From the sequence record MN850621.1: a DNA stretch of 64,000 nt, one strand, 5' to 3'. A program made the position numbers and the translations under genes. Shown piece after piece: positions 1-52,149 of this stretch. The stretch comes from Escherichia phage dhabil. Below the pieces are notes generated by a model, which did not search any database, was not told the DNA's origin, and saw only the letters and a list, made by a program, of their open reading frames with translations. Each line of letters begins with the position of its first letter. Within the stretch, counting starts at the first letter, position 1.

Positions 1-87
1 GGTATATTGGTCTGAGTCTAAACGTTCAATGGCGCGTTCAGCGAAGGCGTGCATTAAGGTTAGATAAATGGGGGTTAAAAATTTCAT
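1..87 (-). CDS. hypothetical protein, N-terminal fragment (gene continues beyond window start)
   Basis: ATG at 87 on minus strand, open frame to window edge (MKFLTPIYLTLMHAFAERAIERLDSDQYT...); not in ORF track because truncated. Confidence 0.3.
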   Translation of the reverse strand, partial: MKFLTPIYLTLMHAFAERAIERLDSDQYT

Positions 88-225: not shown

Positions 226-642
226 TTATGCGTAAATCGCCTTACCATAATGTTTGTACCAGGTAGGACGTTGTGCAATTTTTTCATCCAAACGGGCTTG
301 TGAAATAGCGATAGAAGCTTCGTGAGGAACATAATCACCACGGAATTCCTGAGGAATATCACTAATGTCCTGGACTGTAGTATCCTTGATATTAAAGCCA
401 CGTTTTAAACATTCAGCTATAAGCTCAATTTGACGCTTACGTAAAAATTCAAGCTTATCATAAAAGAATGTAACATGGCCTGTACCAAGGATAAAAGTAG
501 GGCTGATTTTAAAATCACGAACACGTTTACCGTTAGCAACATGCTTACGAACTGCACCGAAAACACGTGGTAATTCACGGTATTCAGCCATAAGGTGTTG
601 GTCGGCCAATTCAGATACTAAGGTAAGGTTGATACGAGTCAT
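226..642 (-). CDS. denV: endonuclease V, pyrimidine-dimer DNA glycosylase/AP lyase
   Basis: 138 aa, near-identical to T4 DenV as remembered ([26 protein letters not shown]...); SD AGGAG upstream. Confidence 0.95.
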
Positions 643-42160: not shown

Positions 42161-42588
42161 TGTTCCTTATCCCTGATGATTACGAATTAACTCTAGAAAG
42201 CGTAGAGGCCAAAATTCCAGAAGCACAGGGACGTTTTGCTACTCTTTCTGAAGCCCTCGAGAAAAGCGATATAAATAATCTTGTAGAGAACATGATTGCT
42301 GATGGTGATATCGATACAGCTATCGCCATTGCCTCTTTGAATGAAAATATGGCTCTTAACGAATTTATCGTTAAGCACGTCTCTTCTAAAGGTGAGCTTA
42401 CTCGTACTAAAGATATTAAAACCCGTCAACGCAACGCTTATCAAACGACTGGGTTGTCTAAAGCAAAACGCCGTCAGATTGCTCGCAAAGCGTCTAAAAC
42501 CAAACGTGCTAACCCGTCTACTCAAGTACGTGCTGAACGTAAGCGTAAGAAAGCTCGTTCTAAACGTAAAGCCTTTGGACTTAACTAA
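42160..42588 (+). CDS. 68: prohead core protein gp68
   Basis: 142 aa, basic C-terminus; size and order as T4 gp68. Confidence 0.8.
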
Positions 42589-43223
42589 TGAAACCTGAAT
42601 TGCTCATCGAACATTGGGGACAACCAGGTGAAATTATCGATGGGGTTCCGATGTTGGAATCTCATGATGGAAAAGATTCTGGACTTGCCCCGGGCCTTTA
42701 TATAGAAGGCATATTCATGCAAGCCGAAGTGGTTAACCGTAATAAACGCCTTTATCCAAAACCTATTTTGGAAAAAGCTGTTGCTGATTATATGGCAGAA
42801 CAGGTTGCTACTAAACAAGCTTTAGGAGAATTAAATCATCCGCCTCGTGCTAACGTCGACCCTATGCAAGCCGCTATTATTATTGAAGATATGTGGTGGA
42901 AAGGTAATGACGTTTATGGACGTGCTCGTATTATTGAAGGCGACCATGGTCCTGGTGATAAACTAGCTGCTAATATTAGAGCCGGTTGGGTGCCTGGTGT
43001 TAGTTCTCGTGGTCTAGGTTCTTTAACTGAAACCAATAAAGGATATAAGCGTGTAAACGAAGGTTATAAATTAACCGTCGGTGTTGATGCAGTATGGGGT
43101 CCATCTGCTCCTGATGCTTATGTAACTCCTAAACAAATTACAGAATCACAAACGGTAGATACCGATACCAGTGCCGATGACGCCTTTATGGCTCTCGCAG
43201 AGGCCATGAAAAAAGCGTTATAA
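42588..43223 (+). CDS. 21: prohead core scaffold protein and protease gp21
   Basis: 211 aa; size and order as T4 gp21 (212 aa). Confidence 0.9.
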   Translation: MKPELLIEHWGQPGEIIDGVPMLESHDGKDSGLAPGLYIEGIFMQAEVVNRNKRLYPKPILEKAVADYMAEQVATKQALGELNHPPRANVDPMQAAIIIEDMWWKGNDVYGRARIIEGDHGPGDKLAANIRAGWVPGVSSRGLGSLTETNKGYKRVNEGYKLTVGVDAVWGPSAPDAYVTPKQITESQTVDTDTSADDAFMALAEAMKKAL

Positions 43224-44090: not shown

Positions 44091-45650
44091 ATGAAAAAGA
44101 ATGCATTAGTACAAAAATGGTCCGCTCTGCTGGAAAACGAAGCTCTTCCTGAAATCGTTGGTGCTTCTAAACAAGCTATCATCGCTAAAATCTTTGAAAA
44201 CCAGGAACAAGATATTCTGACCGCTCCTGAATATCGTGACGAAAAAATCTCCGAAGCATTTGGTTCTTTCCTGACTGAAGCTGAAATCGGTGGTGACCAC
44301 GGTTATGATGCTACCAATATCGCAGCTGGCCAGACCTCTGGTGCTGTAACTCAGATTGGGCCGGCAGTAATGGGTATGGTTCGTCGTGCTATTCCTCATC
44401 TGATTGCTTTTGATATTTGTGGTGTTCAGCCTCTGAATAACCCTACCGGCCAGGTATTTGCACTGCGCGCAGTATACGGTAAAGACCCTATCGCTGCTGG
44501 CGCTAAAGAAGCTTTCCACCCGATGTATGCTCCGAATGCTATGTTCTCTGGTCAGGGTGCTGCTCAGACTTTTGAAGCACTGGCTGCAGGTAAAGTTCTG
44601 GAAGTTGGTAAAATTTATTCTCACTTCTTCGAAGCTACCGGTTCTGCACACTTCCAGGCTGTTGAAGCCGTAACCGTTGATGCTGCTGCTACCGATGCTG
44701 CTAAACTGGATGTTGCCGTAACCGCTCTGTTGGAAGCTGGTCAGCTGGCTGAATTGGCTGAAGGTATGGCTACTTCTATCGCTGAACTTCAGGAAGGCTT
44801 TAACGGTTCTCAGGACAACCCGTGGAACGAAATGGGCTTCCGTATCGATAAACAAGTTATCGAAGCTAAATCCCGTCAGCTGAAAGCAAGTTACTCCATC
44901 GAACTGGCACAGGACCTTCGTGCAGTACACGGTATGGATGCAGATGCTGAACTGTCCGGTATCCTTGCTACCGAAATTATGCTCGAAATCAACCGTGAAG
45001 TTATTGATTGGATTAACTACTCTGCACAGGTTGGTAAATCTGGTATGACCAACACCGTTGGCGCTAAAGCTGGTGTGTTTGACTTCCAGGACCCGATCGA
45101 TATCCGTGGTGCTCGTTGGGCCGGTGAGAGCTTTAAAGCCCTTCTGTTCCAGATTGATAAAGAAGCAGCCGAAATCGCTCGTCAGACCGGTCGTGGTGCT
45201 GGTAACTTCATCATCGCTTCCCGTAACGTAGTTAACGTACTGGCTGCAGTTGATACTTCTGTAAGTTATGCAGCTCAAGGTCTGGGTCAAGGTTTCAACG
45301 TTGACACCACTAAAGCAGTATTTGCCGGTGTTCTTGGTGGTAAATATCGCGTTTACATCGACCAGTATGCCCGTGCTGATTACTTCACCATCGGTTATAA
45401 AGGTTCCAACGAAATGGACGCAGGTATCTACTACGCCCCTTACGTTGCACTGACCCCGCTGCGCGGTTCCGATCCGAAGAACTTCCAGCCGGTAATGGGC
45501 TTCAAAACTCGTTACGGTATCGGTATTAACCCGTTCGCTGACCCAGCTGCTCAGGCACCTACCAAACGTATTCAGAATGGTATGCCGGACATCGTTAACA
45601 GCCTCGGTCTGAATGGTTACTTCCGTCGCGTTTATGTTAAAGGTATCTAA
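44091..45650 (+). CDS. 23: major capsid protein gp23
   Basis: 519 aa, roughly 85% identical to T4 gp23 by eye (…GSFLTEAEIGGDHGY…IAAGQTSGAVTQIGPAVMGMVRRAIP…). Confidence 0.97.
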   Translation: MKKNALVQKWSALLENEALPEIVGASKQAIIAKIFENQEQDILTAPEYRDEKISEAFGSFLTEAEIGGDHGYDATNIAAGQTSGAVTQIGPAVMGMVRRAIPHLIAFDICGVQPLNNPTGQVFALRAVYGKDPIAAGAKEAFHPMYAPNAMFSGQGAAQTFEALAAGKVLEVGKIYSHFFEATGSAHFQAVEAVTVDAAATDAAKLDVAVTALLEAGQLAELAEGMATSIAELQEGFNGSQDNPWNEMGFRIDKQVIEAKSRQLKASYSIELAQDLRAVHGMDADAELSGILATEIMLEINREVIDWINYSAQVGKSGMTNTVGAKAGVFDFQDPIDIRGARWAGESFKALLFQIDKEAAEIARQTGRGAGNFIIASRNVVNVLAAVDTSVSYAAQGLGQGFNVDTTKAVFAGVLGGKYRVYIDQYARADYFTIGYKGSNEMDAGIYYAPYVALTPLRGSDPKNFQPVMGFKTRYGIGINPFADPAAQAPTKRIQNGMPDIVNSLGLNGYFRRVYVKGI

Positions 45651-45666
45651 GACCTAACCTTATTAT

Positions 45667-45695
45667 GGGAGACTTCGGTCTCCCATTCTTGTTTC
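45667..45695 (+). terminator. rho-independent terminator after gene 23 (gggagac-UUCG-gucuccc + U-rich tract)
   Basis: 7-bp stem, UUCG tetraloop, followed by attcttgtttc. Confidence 0.7.
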
Positions 45696-45737
45696 TGTAC
45701 TATAGTAACACGTGGGAACCTTGCTGTAAACAACTTT

Positions 45738-45745
45738 TATAAATA
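45738..45745 (+). promoter_or_regulatory. late promoter TATAAATA for gene 24
   Basis: Exact consensus ~28 nt upstream of the ATG. Confidence 0.55.
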
Positions 45746-45773
45746 AACATATACCCTCAATAAGGAAAGCGCA

Positions 45774-47057
45774 ATGGCAAAGATTAACGAATTACTGCGC
45801 GAGTCAACAACTACTACCAGCAACTCATTGGGTCGCCCTAATCTTGTTGCTTTGACCCGTGCTACCACTAAACTAATTTATCGCGATATCATCGCTGAAC
45901 AACGTACAAACCAACCTATCGCTGCGTTGTATGGTGTCAAATATCTTACCCCTGATAATGAATTCAGTTTCCAAACCGGTGCAGTTTATGGTGGTGAAGT
46001 TGGTTCTAAAGACCGTGAAACTATCCCGGAACTCACAGATAAAGCCCAGGCGATTGCCAAGGGTGACTACTTTAAGTATCAGAATGTGGTTTATAAGGCT
46101 CTTCAAGCAAGCCCACTCGCATCCACTAGCGCTACAGAATTGGCCGATGCTCTTCAAGAAGGTTTGGTGTCATTAACGTGTCGTTTGGTTCCTGATGCAG
46201 CCCATACCACTAAATTTGAAGAGAGTGATGTAGAAATCTCTGATGCTGTATTCCAGGTTAATAAATGGAATGCCCCTGTTAAGACCCGTAAATTGAAGAC
46301 TGCTTTGACCGTAGAATTAGCACAGGATATGGAATCAAATGGCTTCGACGCCCCTGCATTCTTAGAAGACCTCCTGGCTACAGTAATGGCAGATGAAATT
46401 AATAAAGATGTTCTGCAATCCCTAATAACCGTATCCAAACGCTATAAAGTTACGGGTGTATCTGATAATGGCATCATCGATTTGACTTATGATAGTGCTC
46501 CAGAATCTGCACGTAAACTTTATGAAATTGTTTGTGAGATGAATTCTGAAATCCAGAAAACTACTTCTTATTCGGGTACGTTTGTTGTGGCTTCAAGTCG
46601 TGTGGCTGCAATGCTTGCAGGTTCTGGCTGGTTAAAACATAGACCTGAAGATAATAATTGGCTCCCAGAAACGGCCTATGGTTATTTGTTGAATGGATTA
46701 CCTCTGTTCTGTGACGTTAACAGCCCATTGGATTATGTTATCGTAGGTGTTAAAGAGAACTATGGTGGTAATGAAGTTGTCGGTTCTATTTTCTATGCCC
46801 CATATACAGAAGGCCTGGATTTAGACGACCAAGAACACGTTGGTGCTTATAAGGTTATTGTCGACCCGGATTCATTACAGCCTTCTATTTCTCTGATGGT
46901 TCGTTATGCACTGTCCGCTAACCCGTACACCGTAGCTAAAGACGATAAAGAAGCTCGTGTTATCGATGCAACCAATATGGATTTAATGGCTGGTCAGAGT
47001 AATATGTCTTATCTGCTTGGTGTTAAACTTCCAGCAATTATTTACGAGGCTGATTAA
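45774..47057 (+). CDS. 24: capsid vertex protein gp24 (ortholog copy)
   Basis: 427 aa, same length as T4 gp24 and high identity (MAKINELLRESTTT.SNS.GRPNLVALTRATTKLIY…). Confidence 0.9.
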   Translation: MAKINELLRESTTTTSNSLGRPNLVALTRATTKLIYRDIIAEQRTNQPIAALYGVKYLTPDNEFSFQTGAVYGGEVGSKDRETIPELTDKAQAIAKGDYFKYQNVVYKALQASPLASTSATELADALQEGLVSLTCRLVPDAAHTTKFEESDVEISDAVFQVNKWNAPVKTRKLKTALTVELAQDMESNGFDAPAFLEDLLATVMADEINKDVLQSLITVSKRYKVTGVSDNGIIDLTYDSAPESARKLYEIVCEMNSEIQKTTSYSGTFVVASSRVAAMLAGSGWLKHRPEDNNWLPETAYGYLLNGLPLFCDVNSPLDYVIVGVKENYGGNEVVGSIFYAPYTEGLDLDDQEHVGAYKVIVDPDSLQPSISLMVRYALSANPYTVAKDDKEARVIDATNMDLMAGQSNMSYLLGVKLPAIIYEAD

Positions 47058-48337
47058 TGTCTAAGATTATAGACCTAATTAAAGAATCCACATTGACGGC
47101 TGCCAACTCGGTTGGCCGTCCTGCTCTTCTTTCATACACCCAAGCAACTAATAAACGAATCTTTAAAGCCCTAGTTGCTGAACAAAAAACAAGCCAACCT
47201 GTTGCTGCTCTGTACGGGGTTCGTGTACTTAACCCTGACGACAAAATGACTTATCTTGGTGGCGCTACATTTGCAGGCCAGATTGGTATGTCGGAACGTG
47301 AAAATATTCCTGAATTTACCGATTCGTCTACAGCTTATGCAGCCGGCGATATGTTCCAGTTTGAAAGTGTAGTGTTTAAAGTTCTAGAAGCATCTCCTTT
47401 CGCCGGAACCACGGAAACCGACCTCGGTGAAGTTATTTCTGAAGCAGTGGCCGCTGGGCATATTCGTATGGTATCAGATGCTGCTATTACTTCTAAATTC
47501 GAACAAGGCCATCCTGAAATTGCTGAAGCAGGCTTCCGTATTGACAAATGGCAATCTGAAGTTAAATCACGTAAACTGAAAACTTCATTGACAGTCGAAT
47601 TGGCCCAAGACCTAGAATCAAACGGGTTTAATGCTCCTAATTTCATTGAAAATCTGCTAGGCATTCAAATGGCAGAAGAAATTAATAAGGACGTATTACA
47701 GTCATTAATTACAGTGAGTTCTCGTTTTAAAGTCCAGGGTGTTTCTGAAAAGGGCGTATTGGACCTTACTAACCCACGTTATGATAATGCCCAGGACCGT
47801 GCTCGTACATTATATTATTACATGTGTGAGATGAACTCTGCCGTCCAACGTCAAACTTCTTTCGCTGGGACTTATGCCGTAGCTAGTTCTCGTTGTGCTG
47901 CTATTCTCGCTGCATCCGGTTGGGTTGAGAAAAAGGAAGACCAAGATGAATTGGCTTATGGTGTATTAAAGAATGGTCTACCTCTTTATGCCGATATGAA
48001 TAGTCCATGTGATTATGTTATTGTTGGTGTAAATGCTCAGATGGGTGAAGGACAGACGGTCGCATCTTTATATTATGCGCCTTATACGGAAGGTTTGGAT
48101 GTGGTTGATGAAGAAGGTGATACTTCAGTAGGTGAATTTAAGGTTATTGTTGACCCAGAAAGCTTACAACCTACAGTAGCATTGCTTGCTCGTTATGCAT
48201 TGACTGCAAACCCTTATACCGTCGCTAAGGACGATAAAGAAGCCCGCATTATTGATGGTTCTGATATGGACAAAATGGCTAACCAAAGCCAGTTGAGTTC
48301 TTATCTCGGTGTTAAACTTCCACCACTAGAAAAATAA
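47057..48337 (+). CDS. capsid vertex protein gp24 paralog (second tandem copy)
   Basis: 426 aa, roughly half identical to the upstream gp24 copy by eye; ATGA-coupled to it. Confidence 0.8.
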   Translation: MSKIIDLIKESTLTAANSVGRPALLSYTQATNKRIFKALVAEQKTSQPVAALYGVRVLNPDDKMTYLGGATFAGQIGMSERENIPEFTDSSTAYAAGDMFQFESVVFKVLEASPFAGTTETDLGEVISEAVAAGHIRMVSDAAITSKFEQGHPEIAEAGFRIDKWQSEVKSRKLKTSLTVELAQDLESNGFNAPNFIENLLGIQMAEEINKDVLQSLITVSSRFKVQGVSEKGVLDLTNPRYDNAQDRARTLYYYMCEMNSAVQRQTSFAGTYAVASSRCAAILAASGWVEKKEDQDELAYGVLKNGLPLYADMNSPCDYVIVGVNAQMGEGQTVASLYYAPYTEGLDVVDEEGDTSVGEFKVIVDPESLQPTVALLARYALTANPYTVAKDDKEARIIDGSDMDKMANQSQLSSYLGVKLPPLEK

Positions 48338-48338
48338 A

Positions 48339-48363
48339 AGGGACCGTAAGGTCCCTTTATTGT
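48339..48363. terminator. bidirectional rho-independent terminator between the gene 24 paralog (+) and rnlB (-)
   Basis: Hairpin gggacc-GUAA-ggtccc flanked by A-rich 5' and T-rich 3' tracts. Confidence 0.65.
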
Positions 48364-49371
48364 TTATTTGGATACTAATTCAATCCATACAGCTCGTAGC
48401 GTATCTTTAACGCACTCAATAAGCTGCTTTTTAACTTCAACAGGGTTTTCTGCATCGGTTAATTCTAATTCTTCGCGGGCTGCCTCTTCCAAAATATCTT
48501 GGACCGTCAGTCCCATTACCTTTCCAAAATCTTTAGGTGATACTTCACCAATCTTACTGATAACGTTGTTAATACGGTTAACAGTCACATAATCTGTGAA
48601 TTGTTGTAATAAATCTAAATCGTCTTGGGATAATACTACTGCAACTTTAATAGGCTTATCAGATTTTTTCTTCTCGCTGAATTTAGAGTTCTTGCATTTA
48701 ATTGCTACACGATTTCCATTAGGCAGCCAAAGCGGATAACAAGGTTTTAATACGTACCCTTCAGCGGTAAATACTTCGCCTTTTGCTTCGGCATTCCACA
48801 CATGAGCATTAGCTTCGGCTAGCCCGACATTATCTACTGTAAAATTATAATCAGGAAGGACGGAATCTAAATCATTTGGCAATTTAATAAGGTCTTCAAA
48901 TTTACCACGACCTAAAAGTGGTGCCATTTTAAATTTGAACGTCTTACAAAATGATTCCATCATATAATCGTCGACATAAGTCACATCGCCGCTTTCGGTG
49001 GTAACAATAATGTCAAATACATAAAAATCTTTATCACCGTAATCAACGTTCTTCTGAATGCCTGTTCCAGCGAATTCACCGAAAACTTGATAAGATACGG
49101 CTGCTGAAGTTTCCATAATATCTTGTATAGATTTAATAGAATCAGCGTAGTTCTTAAGTACAATTTCATAACCATAGAAATCTTCAGCAGGGAGAATTGG
49201 GCCAGTGCGCTTGGCGCATGTGACTGCGTCACGTTCTATGATTAAACTAAAGTTGGTTCCATGAATCTTCTCACGTGCTACCCATTCACCACCAGTCAAA
49301 CCATTGGTACGGAGTTTTTCGATAAACTTACTGTTGTAGTGGTTTTCCAGACTGCTATATTTCTTGAACAT
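48364..49371 (-). CDS. rnlB: RNA ligase 2 (Rnl2)
   Basis: 335 aa, high identity to T4 Rnl2 ([20 protein letters not shown]…, nucleotidyltransferase motif KIHGTN). Confidence 0.92.
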
Positions 49372-49767: not shown

Positions 49768-51273
49768 ATGTCAGACAATCCATTATACGGGCATGATGGT
49801 AGAGGCCACTTTAGAGGCGTATCATTAGTAGAAGTTCCACAGAACAAATCATTGGAATTTGTGGACATACTCACTAGTGAAAGCACCTTAGACCCTACTA
49901 TGCTAGATTCTTCTCAAAGCTATGGACTTGAATTTATAAAACAAGCTTCTAGGGAAGGCGCGTTGGCCCATTTAGGTATAACTAATGAGATGCTAACACC
50001 TGGTACTGAAGGTCCACAAGGCCCTAAAGGAGACCCAGGGCCGCAAGGTATTCAAGGTAACCCCGGTCCTAAAGGAGAAAAGGGCGAACCAGGACCAGTA
50101 GGTCCAGAAGGTCCTAAAGGAGACCCGGGTTCACCAGGAAAAGAAGGCCCTCAGGGTTTACAAGGGGCCCAAGGAGAAGTAGGACCGCAAGGACCACAAG
50201 GTCCTATAGGCCCGGCAGGTTTGGTGTGGAAGGGAGCCTGGGATGAATCTACCCAATACTCTAAAGACGATGCAGTTGGATACCAGGGAGCTTCTTATTT
50301 TTGCATCAGTTCTAATACAGGAACAATACCTCCTAGCGAAGGAGTTTGGGCACTATTGGCTAATATCGGTGCACCAGGTCCTCAAGGACCAACAGGCCCA
50401 ACCGGCCCTCAAGGTCCACAAGGCGCGCCAGGCCAAGATGGTAATGGGTTTATCTGGGCCGGAAACTGGGCCCTTGGTTCGTCTTATTATATAAACGATT
50501 TGGTCCAGTGCGAAGGGTCTTCTTGGATTTGTATCCAGGATAATATAGCAAATAATGATAGTTATCCTGGGAGTGGAGACCTGTGGGCCGATTATTGGAA
50601 TTTATTTGTAAAAGAAGGGCGTCCAGGAAATCCCGGAGAAGATGGTGCACCTGGAGAGCAAGGTGCCCAAGGACCGCAAGGCGACCCAGGTCCTAAAGGT
50701 GAAAAGGGTGAACCCGGGCCACAAGGTATTCAAGGTCCTATAGGTCCTGCAGGTGCGCCAGGCAAAGATGCAGTATTTGATGTCGATTCTTTAACCCAGT
50801 CTCAATTAAAATCTTTATATGATAAACTTTTCCCATTCTATCCACCTAGATATTGGAAAGGCTCTTTAAGATTTGATAAGCCTCTGAACACTTCAGAGTG
50901 GAAGGAAATACGTTTGTGGGACCTTAATATGGTTCTTCATGTTCGCATGTACTCATCTGTAGGCATCCATATAAGGGCTACTAATGCAGGTCTTACTAAT
51001 AGGCTTGATATTAAAAGATTTACCAACTATGAAAACGGAATAGAATGTGCCAACTGGAGTAATGTGTTGTGGTCATCATCTCCTGAATTATTCGACGATT
51101 TGGCTTATTCTAGTGCAAGACAATTTAACCGTTACGAAATATTTGACCGTGATACTAGAAAATACTACACTGTATCTGTGTTTATTGTAGGCGGCCCTCT
51201 TAATACGACTACAGATATCCCTGTTGAAGTTTTATTTTCTGTCGAAGACCATACCAATATGAGCACGTTTTAA
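49768..51273 (+). CDS. collagen-like protein with two chitin-binding-type (CBM5/12-like) modules and a C-terminal globular domain
   Basis: 501 aa; three Gly-X-Y blocks (about nt 50002-50194, 50347-50424, 50623-50769) separated by W…Y…D.V.Y.G..Y.C modules; SD AGGAG. Confidence 0.8.
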
Positions 51274-51282
51274 GGAGGTTAA

Positions 51283-52149
51283 ATGATTGTACTTAAAATA
51301 AATGGTCCTAGATATGAATTGGTTGGCAGGACAGTAACCTTTTATACCGGGTTTGTATTACCACCCGGTTCTACTCTAGATGACGTAGAAATTAATTGGT
51401 ATAAAAACGATGTCCATATTCCACAACTTCCTACCGAAGACCCTTTTGAATTAAATTTATGGGAAGTAGGATTCCCGGCGGCAGGAACATTTTATGCGAC
51501 CATAACAAATAAGAAAAGTGGTGAAATAACAAAGAGTAACGAAATAGAACTTGAAATAGGTACCCTTCCAAGAAGAATAGTCCTAGATATAAACTCTAGG
51601 GAATTAATATATGCCAATATAGGAGAAACAGTTTCACTTCGCCCGTCGTGTAGAGTGGAACCCACTTATGCCGAAAGAATTTGTAGATGGTATAGAGATG
51701 GAGTAGAATTATCTAAAGACGAAGATATTGATATATTAATAGACGACCCTGATAAATTTGGAGATTATACATTAAAATCTATAGCGACCTGCGAAGGAGC
51801 ATATATCCCTGCTTCTGAAGAACTTTTAGTTGAAATAAAACCTAGGGATGATGTATTGCAGTGCCCTTTCATATATGATAACGACCTTAATGCTTATTTA
51901 CCATATGGCGGTGGAAGAAATGAATCGTATATGTGGATAGGTTGGTGGGTATGGGACGAAATAAGAGAAGCCGTTAGATTGGGAGAAGATTGGACTTTGG
52001 ATATAAACAACAGCCCATACAAGTATAAATGTGAGTTACAAAAAGTAGCCGACCTTTTGTCTAAGTATCCTGAAGTAGAGATACAAGAGTCGAGAAATGG
52101 CTACATCTTAGAAAGGAAAGACTTAGTTTACGTCCCTCCTGAAAAATAA
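51283..52149 (+). CDS. Hoc-like capsid decoration protein paralog (novel N-terminal domains + Hoc capsid-binding C-terminus)
   Basis: 288 aa; C-terminal ~75 aa (YMWIGWWVWDEI…YPEVEIQESRNGYILER) matches the C-terminus of the Hoc protein on the opposite strand; coupled to the collagen gene (TAAGGAGGTTAAATG). Confidence 0.7.
   Translation: MIVLKINGPRYELVGRTVTFYTGFVLPPGSTLDDVEINWYKNDVHIPQLPTEDPFELNLWEVGFPAAGTFYATITNKKSGEITKSNEIELEIGTLPRRIVLDINSRELIYANIGETVSLRPSCRVEPTYAERICRWYRDGVELSKDEDIDILIDDPDKFGDYTLKSIATCEGAYIPASEELLVEIKPRDDVLQCPFIYDNDLNAYLPYGGGRNESYMWIGWWVWDEIREAVRLGEDWTLDINNSPYKYKCELQKVADLLSKYPEVEIQESRNGYILERKDLVYVPPEK

Follow-up and report, generated by a model that had tools for sequence, protein, structure and literature searches.

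The window analysed here, a stretch of 64,000 nucleotides from Escherichia phage dhabil (sequence record MN850621.1), carries two adjacent genes for capsid vertex proteins, 24a and 24b, and the features of their locus are collected in Table 1. The gene order in the window is gp20-...-gp21-gp22-gp23-24a-24b-(rnlB), and the stop codon of 24a (TAA, 47055-47057) shares one base with the start codon of 24b (ATG, 47057-47059), giving a TAATG junction. The box TATAAATA is the only one of its kind between positions 45600 and 48400, with none inside either 24a or 24b; across the whole window, late-promoter boxes are matched 19 times against 8.2 expected. Both the T4-type late promoter and the place within the late head-gene cluster, directly behind gene 23, are as in the gp24 family. 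The CAI calculated against gp23 is 0.37 for 24b and 0.43 for 24a, a weak difference that is not decisive as a proxy for expression. In our reading, 24a and 24b form a conserved late operon of two genes, composed of a late promoter, 24a, an overlapping stop and start, 24b and a terminator.

Table 1. Features of the 24a/24b locus, in coordinates of the window.
Feature	Position	Strand	Remarks
gp21 homologue (prohead protease)	42588-43223		same window
gene 23	44091-45650		upstream of 24a
GC-rich terminator-like hairpin, then T-run	45665..45686	+	after gene 23; pattern scan
T4-type late promoter box TATAAATA	45738..45745	+	29 nt 5' of 24a start
gene 24a, capsid vertex protein, 427 aa	45774..47057	+	T4 gp24 orthologue; BLASTP, Pfam match
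GAGG Shine-Dalgarno of 24b	47046..47049	+	within final 24a codons; 7 nt 5' of 24b ATG
gene 24b, second capsid vertex protein paralogue, 426 aa	47057..48337	+	BLASTP, Pfam match
bidirectional terminator-like hairpin	48337..48358	both	between 24b end and rnlB; pattern scan
rnlB	48364-49371	-	convergent with 24b; named from dhaeg annotation

Both proteins are homologous to gp24 over their full length. Compared with each other by BLASTP, they are 56% identical with 77% positives (E=0, full length), and their genes are about 65% identical in nucleotides. The T4 gp24 structure 1YUE (residues 1-424) is matched at 666 bits by 24a and 510 bits by 24b, and the gp23 chains at only 45-48 bits by both (E about 1e-11), placing the two copies in the gp24 family, nearer gp24 than gp23. 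The Pfam family PF07068 is matched at 331 bits (24a) and 327 bits (24b), both fall in PHROG 138, and alignment to T4-type gp24, represented by RB55, gives identities of 70% for 24a and 58% for 24b. These values bear out the original prediction in several respects: two adjacent, full-length and apparently translationally coupled gp24 homologues (the two open reading frames, TAATG, GAGG 7 nt upstream), about half identical to each other, of which the first is much nearer to T4 gp24, and a single gene 24 in T4 that is a distant relative of gene 23. Since the copies are 58-70% identical to the T4 gp24 of known structure, we infer an HK97-type fold with an I domain in the E-loop for both copies; an AlphaFold2 model of 24b, built on an alignment of 21 sequences, had a mean pLDDT of 41 and was confident only for residues about 80-140.

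The tandem pair is already annotated and published, and is not new to this phage. Sequence identity between the window and Dhakavirus phage dhaeg is 99.9%, and the dhaeg record carries an annotation for each of the two genes. In GenBank they are named 24a/24b in JS98, JS10 and IME08, 24(1)/24(2) in VR7, and 'head vertex protein I/II' in S16, CGG4-1 and Melville, and the announcement of the Melville genome notes the tandem duplication in S16-like phages (PMC6486254). These phages share the two genes, their order and their coupling with the window. The JS98 and JS10 proteins are 95-99% (24a) and 91-100% (24b) identical to those of the window (JS98 at 95% and 91%), with nothing substantive that differs, although both phages have a small minus-strand ORF between genes 23 and 24a that the window, dhaeg and CLB_P2 do not.

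The arrangement is also widespread. A search with the two genes as query recovered it in 81 phage records, each with a query coverage of 80% or more. Annotated pairs are known from Dhakavirus, Gaprivervirus, Gelderlandvirus, Roskildevirus and Enterobacter 'Kanagawavirus' phages, and the pair is also present in metagenomic lineages. A 24a-type gene lies directly upstream of 24b for all six metagenomic 24b proteins that were looked up (8 contigs) and at 17 of 17 24b loci in IMG/VR; among the annotated pairs and these metagenomic proteins and loci, no 24b was found that lacked its upstream 24a. The junction between the two genes measures -4 to +1 nt in 16/16 pairs examined, and the window conforms, with a 24b-clade gene right after a 24a-clade gene on the same strand, joined by TAATG. 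Within each genome, the identity between 24a and 24b is constant at 52-57% across the pair-bearing lineages. A candidate second type of pair (P0071 with P0097) was rejected, P0071 being a single gene that adjoins rnlB.

Trees were built by neighbour-joining with bootstrap rather than by maximum likelihood, revealing a monophyletic 24b clade (100% bootstrap) that includes the 24b of the window, while the window's 24a falls in the 24a clade; the topologies of the two clades are mirror images of each other, and the two genes have been passed on as a pair across several Tevenvirinae genera. The gp24 proteins of T4, Mosigvirus and PEi20 nest inside the 24a clade, where T4 and Mosigvirus gp24 group with mgL019_24a (88%) within a 24a clade supported at 96-99%. 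In the gp23 tree as well, single-copy phages are nested among pair-bearers (in a 94% clade; KpShark with mgL019 at 100%; PEi20 in a 90% clade). According to these trees, the 24a and 24b lineages parted before the split between T4 and Dhakavirus, and the pair is old rather than a recent, lineage-specific one. Because T4-type gp24 nests in the 24a clade of pair-bearers, the single gene 24 of T4, Mosigvirus and PEi20 more likely reflects a secondary loss of 24b. The original prediction implied a duplication notable in this phage against a single-copy T4 norm, a contrast that is not supported given this nesting and the occurrence of the pair elsewhere.

Three recent histories of the pair were rejected. 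A recent lineage-specific tandem duplication does not fit about 65% nucleotide and 56% protein identity, nor the 52-57% seen in every pair-bearing lineage. The same nucleotide divergence, the constancy of the identity between copies and the lack of long identical tracts speak against recent gene conversion. Finally, 24b is not a fast-evolving recent duplicate of 24a displaced by long-branch attraction, since its identities to outgroups match those of 24a (42 vs 45% for Aeromonas 25, 45 vs 44% for RB43 and 58 vs 59% for ZZ1, 24b given first). The deep nodes that join 24a, 24b and the single genes of Klebsiella, Acinetobacter and Erwinia phages are poorly resolved, at 42-62%. As a side observation, suggestive only, the single gp24 of Klebsiella phages may be a fusion of the two types, its residues 1-90 being 24a-like and residues 161-330 grouping with 24b at 80% bootstrap.

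How 24b arose is a separate matter, and here a xenologous origin has a real though minority claim: a gp24 gene from another T4-like lineage would have been captured long ago and integrated behind the gene 24 that was already present. The neighbour-joining trees put 24b near the Klebsiella-type and Acinetobacter ZZ1 gp24 rather than sister to 24a, with weak values of 42-66%, and 24a, 24b and the Klebsiella-type and ZZ1 single genes are roughly equidistant (56-64%). Against this, the phage, metagenomic and IMG/VR look-ups found no possible donor, meaning a lineage whose sole gp24 is of the 24b type, 24b is unremarkable in GC content and codon usage, and the C-terminal segment groups the two clades in 44% of bootstrap replicates. 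We regard the capture as rather unlikely. In either case the event predates the radiation of all pair-bearing phages, and the functional reading is therefore unchanged.

Both copies are intact and under strong purifying selection, with dN/dS of 0.02-0.09 (NG86), like gp23. The N-terminus of 24a, MAKINELLRE|ST, matches the propeptide of T4 gp24 and its cleavage context residue for residue, and that of 24b reads MSKIIDLIKE|ST; the motif L-[IL]-x-E-S, variable at x, is kept in 16/16 24b orthologues. Both proteins of the window share with T4 gp24 (PDB 1YUE, 5VF3, 7VRT/7VS5) its length, a matching 10-residue propeptide ending in Glu is predicted for each, and T4 gene 24 likewise sits after gene 23 with a late promoter; the difference is that T4 has one vertex gene and the window two, the second from a separate old clade. 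Taking domain roles from T4 head structures (PMC9546572, PMC9958956) and using approximate domain boundaries, we found the highest identity between 24a and 24b in the two P-domain regions (69% and 68%), and lower values in the N-arm (53%), I-linker 1 (40%) and A-domain region (54%). In these last three regions, conservation within each paralogue is 65-82%. Seven of the 14 fixed differences between the paralogues lie in T4 residues 25-57 (Fisher p=0.0013), and it is in this N-arm segment that the fixed differences of 24b from T4 gp24 are concentrated, in addition to a 3-residue insertion in the 348-359 loop. Besides this insertion, the positions that tell the paralogues apart are, in T4 numbering, L34R, Y57V, T204I, P244Q and E335Q. 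The same conserved residue occupies 137 alignment columns in both clades.

On balance we lean towards 24a and 24b being two sub-functionalised vertex proteins of one capsid, with separate homopentamers as the favoured arrangement. Both proteins would enter the prohead, the gp21 protease would, as the motif suggests, cut each of them after Glu10, and both would end up in one capsid, at its 11 non-portal vertices. Homopentamers of 24a and of 24b may then sit separately in one gp23 lattice, possibly at different vertex classes of the prolate head. The paralogue-specific signatures fall in the N-arm, I-domain linker 1 and A-domain region, which would correspond to the capsomer core and intracapsomer contacts of T4. 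Homopentamers are favoured over mixed ones because these core and intracapsomer regions are paralogue-specific, with the P-domain regions, which dock to gp23 hexamers, the most conserved; this preference is drawn from approximate domain boundaries and identity statistics, not from interface residues. The gp23/gp24 paralogy of T4 follows the same theme, in which an HK97-fold capsid gene is duplicated and then specialised for one lattice position; gp23 and gp24 share about 20% identity and occupy demonstrably distinct positions (hexamer vs pentamer), whereas 24a and 24b are 56% identical and their positional specialisation is hypothetical. Against the main reading, T4 and many relatives make the same prolate head with a single gp24, which point mutants of gp23 can even bypass (PMC9958956); the head structure therefore does not require a second vertex protein, and that protein has been lost repeatedly. 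Virion proteomics or cryo-EM of any pair-bearing phage was not found in the searchable literature; the proteomes found, of Morganella phage MP1 and Klebsiella phage ValerieMcCarty, both belong to single-copy phages.

A more far-reaching version, which we put forward as speculation and think unlikely, is that the ancestral Tevenvirinae capsid had two penton proteins for different classes of five-fold vertex, a state kept in the pair-bearers and simplified in T4. One paralogue might be apical on the long axis and the other at the ten shoulder vertices, or the two might divide portal-proximal and distal rings.

Among the competing functional explanations, the best placed, though in our judgement unlikely, is that one paralogue suffices and that 24b is a back-up or condition-specific subunit, with capsids made mainly of either protein, for instance according to the range of temperatures, the chaperones of the host, osmotic or gut stress, or the need to escape a vertex-sensing defence. 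The repeated loss of 24b in viable lineages (T4/Mosigvirus, PEi20, Klebsiella type, Winklervirus type) is in keeping with this, as is the description of the pair-bearing phages VR5, VR7 and VR20 as low-temperature coliphages. Counted on the same side are the effect of T4 gp24 on capsid robustness and the fact that it can be bypassed (PMC10580926, PMC9958956), and the finding that triggering of type IV Thoeris needs T6 gp24, with the substitution A380V escaping it (PMC13243611). However, one late promoter in common and translational coupling in every genome argue for obligatory co-expression rather than a switch, and a sensor that detects 24a would still fire with 24b co-expressed. Evasion of defence through the T6 A380 position is itself unsupported, as the same alanine is present in both copies (RYALSANPY and RYALTANPY).

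It is less probable still that 24a and 24b co-assemble as heteromeric pentamers within one vertex. Coupled translation would supply both proteins together in time and space, and the columns conserved identically in the two clades are compatible with mixing; nevertheless, a symmetric mixture of the two is impossible in a five-fold vertex, and the paralogue specificity of the A-domain region, I-linker 1 and N-arm is what self-contacts within each paralogue would be expected to leave. We give even less weight to a role for 24b outside the virion, whether only in assembly, as a transient plug of prohead vertices, a trigger of protease activation or a scaffold-like factor, or away from the capsid altogether. 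In T4, gp21 activation is believed to be set off when gp24 attaches at the prohead vertices (PMC9958956), which makes an assembly-only 24b conceivable. Yet 24b conserves the whole HK97-type capsid protein, including the gp23-contacting P-domain regions (68-69% to 24a), has a dN/dS as low as that of the major capsid protein and retains the propeptide cleavage motif, features that suit a subunit of the mature shell more than a transient factor. A recent duplication in this phage can be dismissed, only adjacency and equal gene length speaking for it against the same 52-57% in all pair-bearing lineages, and the assembly or frameshift artefact that the original prediction had allowed for is excluded because 81 independent phage records share the arrangement and the copies are only about 65% identical in nucleotides.

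The duplication itself is ordinary, having been annotated since the JS98 genome and being in print for S16-like phages; what this analysis adds is the age of the pair, its spread across genera, the reading of the T4 state as a loss, the selection acting on both copies and the regions in which they differ. Pair-bearing phages are already in culture, and several are candidates for phage therapy. What could matter is the direction of evolution and the structural question. Should the Tevenvirinae have started with two vertex proteins and T4 have lost one, the standard account of T4 head evolution, a duplication of gp23 that yields gp24 followed by optimisation of gp24, would miss a step. The Dhaka-, Gelderland- and Roskildevirus phages would in that case be a natural system for studying how, in a prolate capsid, different proteins are directed to five-fold vertices that are geometrically non-equivalent.

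The window carries two adjacent genes, here called 24a and 24b, which were originally predicted to encode full-length homologues of gp24, the T4 capsid vertex protein, roughly half identical to each other and with the first copy closer to T4. Each of these points was confirmed: both products match the T4 gp24 structure (1YUE) over their full length, with 666 bits for 24a and 510 bits for 24b, both match Pfam PF07068 and PHROG 138, and both match the major capsid protein gp23 weakly (45-48 bits). In an end-to-end alignment the two proteins share 56% identity and 77% similarity, and in a common alignment 24a is 70% identical to T4-type gp24, versus 58% for 24b. An assembly or frameshift error, named in the original prediction as a possible source of an artefactual duplication, is ruled out, since the copies are ~65% identical in DNA and the same arrangement recurs in 81 phage records.

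Features of the 24a/24b region (window positions) and regional identity of the two proteins (residue positions; domain limits taken from T4 gp24 in PMC9546572)
Feature	Position	Strand	Description	24a-24b identity	Within 24a	Within 24b
Hairpin after gene 23	45665-45686		terminator-like			
Late promoter box	45738-45745		T4-type, TATAAATA; 29 nt before 24a start			
24a	45774..47057	+	ORF, 427 aa			
24b	47057..48337	+	ORF, 426 aa			
Hairpin between 24b and convergent rnlB	48337-48358		reads as terminator on both strands			
P-domain regions	155-230 and 360-427			69% and 68%	82-83%	84-86%
N-arm	11-59			53%	82%	78%
I-domain linker 1				40%	65%	74%
A-domain-rich stretch	231-347			54%	74%	82%
Loop	348-359			38%	76%	66%

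The promoter box upstream of 24a is the sole such box across 45600-48400; no box belonging to 24b was found in a scan of this interval, and 24b starts on the 24a stop codon. At this junction, TAATG, the 24a TAA overlaps the 24b ATG, and a GAGG lies within the final 24a codons, 7 nt 5' of the ATG. Across the 16 extracted pairs the junction is always kept at -4 to +1 nt, and most pairs have a purine-rich stretch close to the 24a stop, in its final codons. The shared promoter box and the tight, conserved junction indicate that the genes are co-transcribed late and probably, as originally proposed, translationally coupled. Across the window, TATAAATA boxes are enriched (19 found versus 8.2 expected from shuffles, with none of 100 shuffles reaching 19), mostly on the plus strand, 5' of head and tail genes at 37-46 kb.

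Gene 23 and 24a are separated by only 123 bp (45651-45773), as in dhaeg and CLB_P2; in JS98, JS10, Bp7, VR5 and VR7 this slot holds a minus-strand ORF of 267-282 bp, and in T4/RB55, Salmonella CGG4-1 and Erwinia Gravdalen it holds a segD-type homing endonuclease, making it a variable insertion point. Roskildevirus-type phages and related metagenomic contigs carry two extra plus-strand genes directly after 24b (L028 5027-6542; L022 4890-6427; L024 6326-7841; L026 2634-4140), labeled in Cronus as 'tail fiber protein' (~340 aa) and 'putative structural protein' (~165 aa), and the metagenomic locus mgL019 has a different gene of 239 aa there. Further along the window, a plus-strand gene for a 501-aa protein that combines collagen triple-helix repeats with a CBM_5_12 carbohydrate-binding module (49768-51273) directly precedes one for a 288-aa Ig-like, hoc-annotated protein (51283-52149, plus strand); together (49768-52149) they may form a capsid or fiber decoration module. 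The collagen-like gene is present in JS10, VR5 and VR7 and missing from JS98 and Bp7, where hoc lies on the opposite strand.

Identity of the region to CLB_P2, JS10, Bp7 and JS98 is 85-99%; to Escherichia phage dhaeg (Dhakavirus) it reaches 99.9%, so the window contributes no new variant. The duplication itself is annotated and published, hence known: the genes are labeled '24a' and '24b, gp24 head vertex protein' in JS98, JS10 and IME08, '24(1)/24(2)' in VR7, 'capsid vertex protein I/II' in VR5, VR20, VR25 and VR26, and 'head vertex protein I/II' in CGG4-1. What the present analysis contributes is the polarity of the pair's evolution and evidence of function drawn from sequence.

Intact pairs occur in Dhakavirus (JS98, JS10, Bp7, VR5), Gaprivervirus (VR7), Gelderlandvirus (S16, CGG4-1), Roskildevirus (Erwinia phage Cronus; also IT22, FBB1) and the Enterobacter phages Entb_45 and IME523, filed under Kanagawavirus. 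At least 80% identity to the window 24b is found in 91 of the 1420 records whose gp24-type match is full-length, and a search of 5.8 billion proteins yielded a graded series of 24b-type proteins (P0001-P0021) down to 67% identity. A 24a-type gene lies immediately upstream in all six of these examined on their contigs and in all 17 IMG/VR loci with a 24b-type gene; among the phage records, the six metagenomic proteins and the 17 loci, no genome was found with a 24b-type gene as its sole gp24. Only one copy is present in, for instance, T4/RB55, Mosigvirus, Klebsiella phage Shark_ER15, Erwinia phage Gravdalen (Winklervirus), Edwardsiella PEi20, Acinetobacter ZZ1, Aeromonas phage 25 and RB43. Copy number is not constant at genus level, since under the one name Kanagawavirus PEi20 (L015) has one gp24, whereas Entb_45 (L009) and IME523 (L016) have two. 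The IME523 record (L016 7570-8675) gives the name 'capsid vertex protein gp24' to a 1464-bp minus-strand gene and 'major capsid protein' to 24a; a tblastn search with 24b hits just three gp23/gp24-like loci in that genome (24a, 24b and gp23), and both labels are probable misannotations.

The original prediction had proposed comparing gp23, gp24 and the paralogue by pairwise identity and phylogeny, which we did with neighbor-joining trees (Kimura-corrected distances, 200 bootstraps). All 24b sequences fall into a single clade (100%), and the gp24 of T4, Mosigvirus and PEi20 groups with 24a to the exclusion of 24b (96-100%). Branching orders are mirrored within the two clades, with Roskildevirus-type sequences basal, followed by the metagenomic loci mgL019 and mgL021 and next by the groups of Enterobacter, Gelderlandvirus and Gaprivervirus/Dhakavirus; T4/Mosigvirus gp24 adjoins mgL019 24a (88%) and PEi20 gp24 adjoins mgL021 24a. 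In the independent gp23 tree, single-copy phages are scattered among pair-bearers (94% clade), Shark_ER15 pairing with mgL019 (100%) and PEi20 falling within a 90% clade of pair-bearers. Same-genome identity of 52-57% in every lineage shows that the copies have not been homogenized. We rejected 24b as a fast-evolving recent copy, for it is no more distant from outgroups than 24a. The simplest reading of these trees is that the two lineages split before the sampled Tevenvirinae radiated and were co-inherited since, with 24b lost several times, probably including the T4 line, whose single gene 24 would reflect that loss. The original event may have been in-situ duplication or, as a rival reading of foreign origin holds, capture of a foreign gp24; support is only 42-66% at the deep nodes that connect 24a, 24b and the single genes from Klebsiella, Acinetobacter and Erwinia phages. 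The single gp24 of Klebsiella phage vB_KpnM_Shark_ER15 (L012 2301-3581) seems to be a mosaic: its residues 1-90 share 90-100% identity with 24a of the pair-bearing mgL019, and its residues 161-330 fall with the 24b clade (80%). Unequal crossing-over that fused 24a and 24b, as one way of losing a copy, could account for this.

Both copies appear, from their sequences, to be functional prohead or capsid proteins. Among orthologues, dN/dS (Nei-Gojobori) is 0.02-0.09 for 24a and likewise for 24b, against 0.02-0.15 for gp23 of the same genomes, so the constraint on 24b equals that on the major capsid protein. In T4, the gp21 protease removes the first 10 residues of gp24 (PMC9958956, PMC9546572). 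This propeptide is nearly unaltered in all 24a proteins, and L-[IL]-x-E-S, with x free to vary, is kept at the same position in all 16 24b proteins, as selection for continued cleavage would produce; the retained motif suggests that 24b enters the prohead.

The copies appear to have diverged mainly in the N-arm and in the regions of the capsomer core. Different residues occupy only 14 of the 151 columns conserved in both clades, and half of these 14 fall at T4 residues 25-57 (Fisher p=0.0013). In T4, P domains contact neighboring gp23 hexamers near quasi-threefold axes, the capsomer core is built from A domains, and intracapsomer contacts hold linker 1 (PMC9546572). The N-arm, which becomes ordered on the outer surface during expansion, touches neighboring subunits (PMC9958956). 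The pattern fits docking of both proteins in the same gp23 lattice, each with its own co-adapted intracapsomer contacts, as separate homopentamers, a reading drawn from identity statistics rather than interface coordinates.

In the mechanism we propose, both proteins would be made late from one transcript, join prohead vertices, lose the residues up to Glu10 and stay in the mature head, where each would probably form pentamers of its own. Rival readings are that one copy is a co-expressed, conditionally advantageous back-up, that pentamers are mixed, or that the role is confined to assembly. The searchable literature yielded neither virion proteomics nor knockouts nor vertex-resolved cryo-EM of a pair-bearing phage. 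As originally written, the finding is of moderate-to-low interest; the structural question merits a wet-lab test. In the five-fold-averaged T4 head, 11 independent gp24 subunits represent three classes of non-portal vertex (PMC9546572), so that a positional division of labor between 24a and 24b over vertex classes, although hypothetical, would be geometrically possible.
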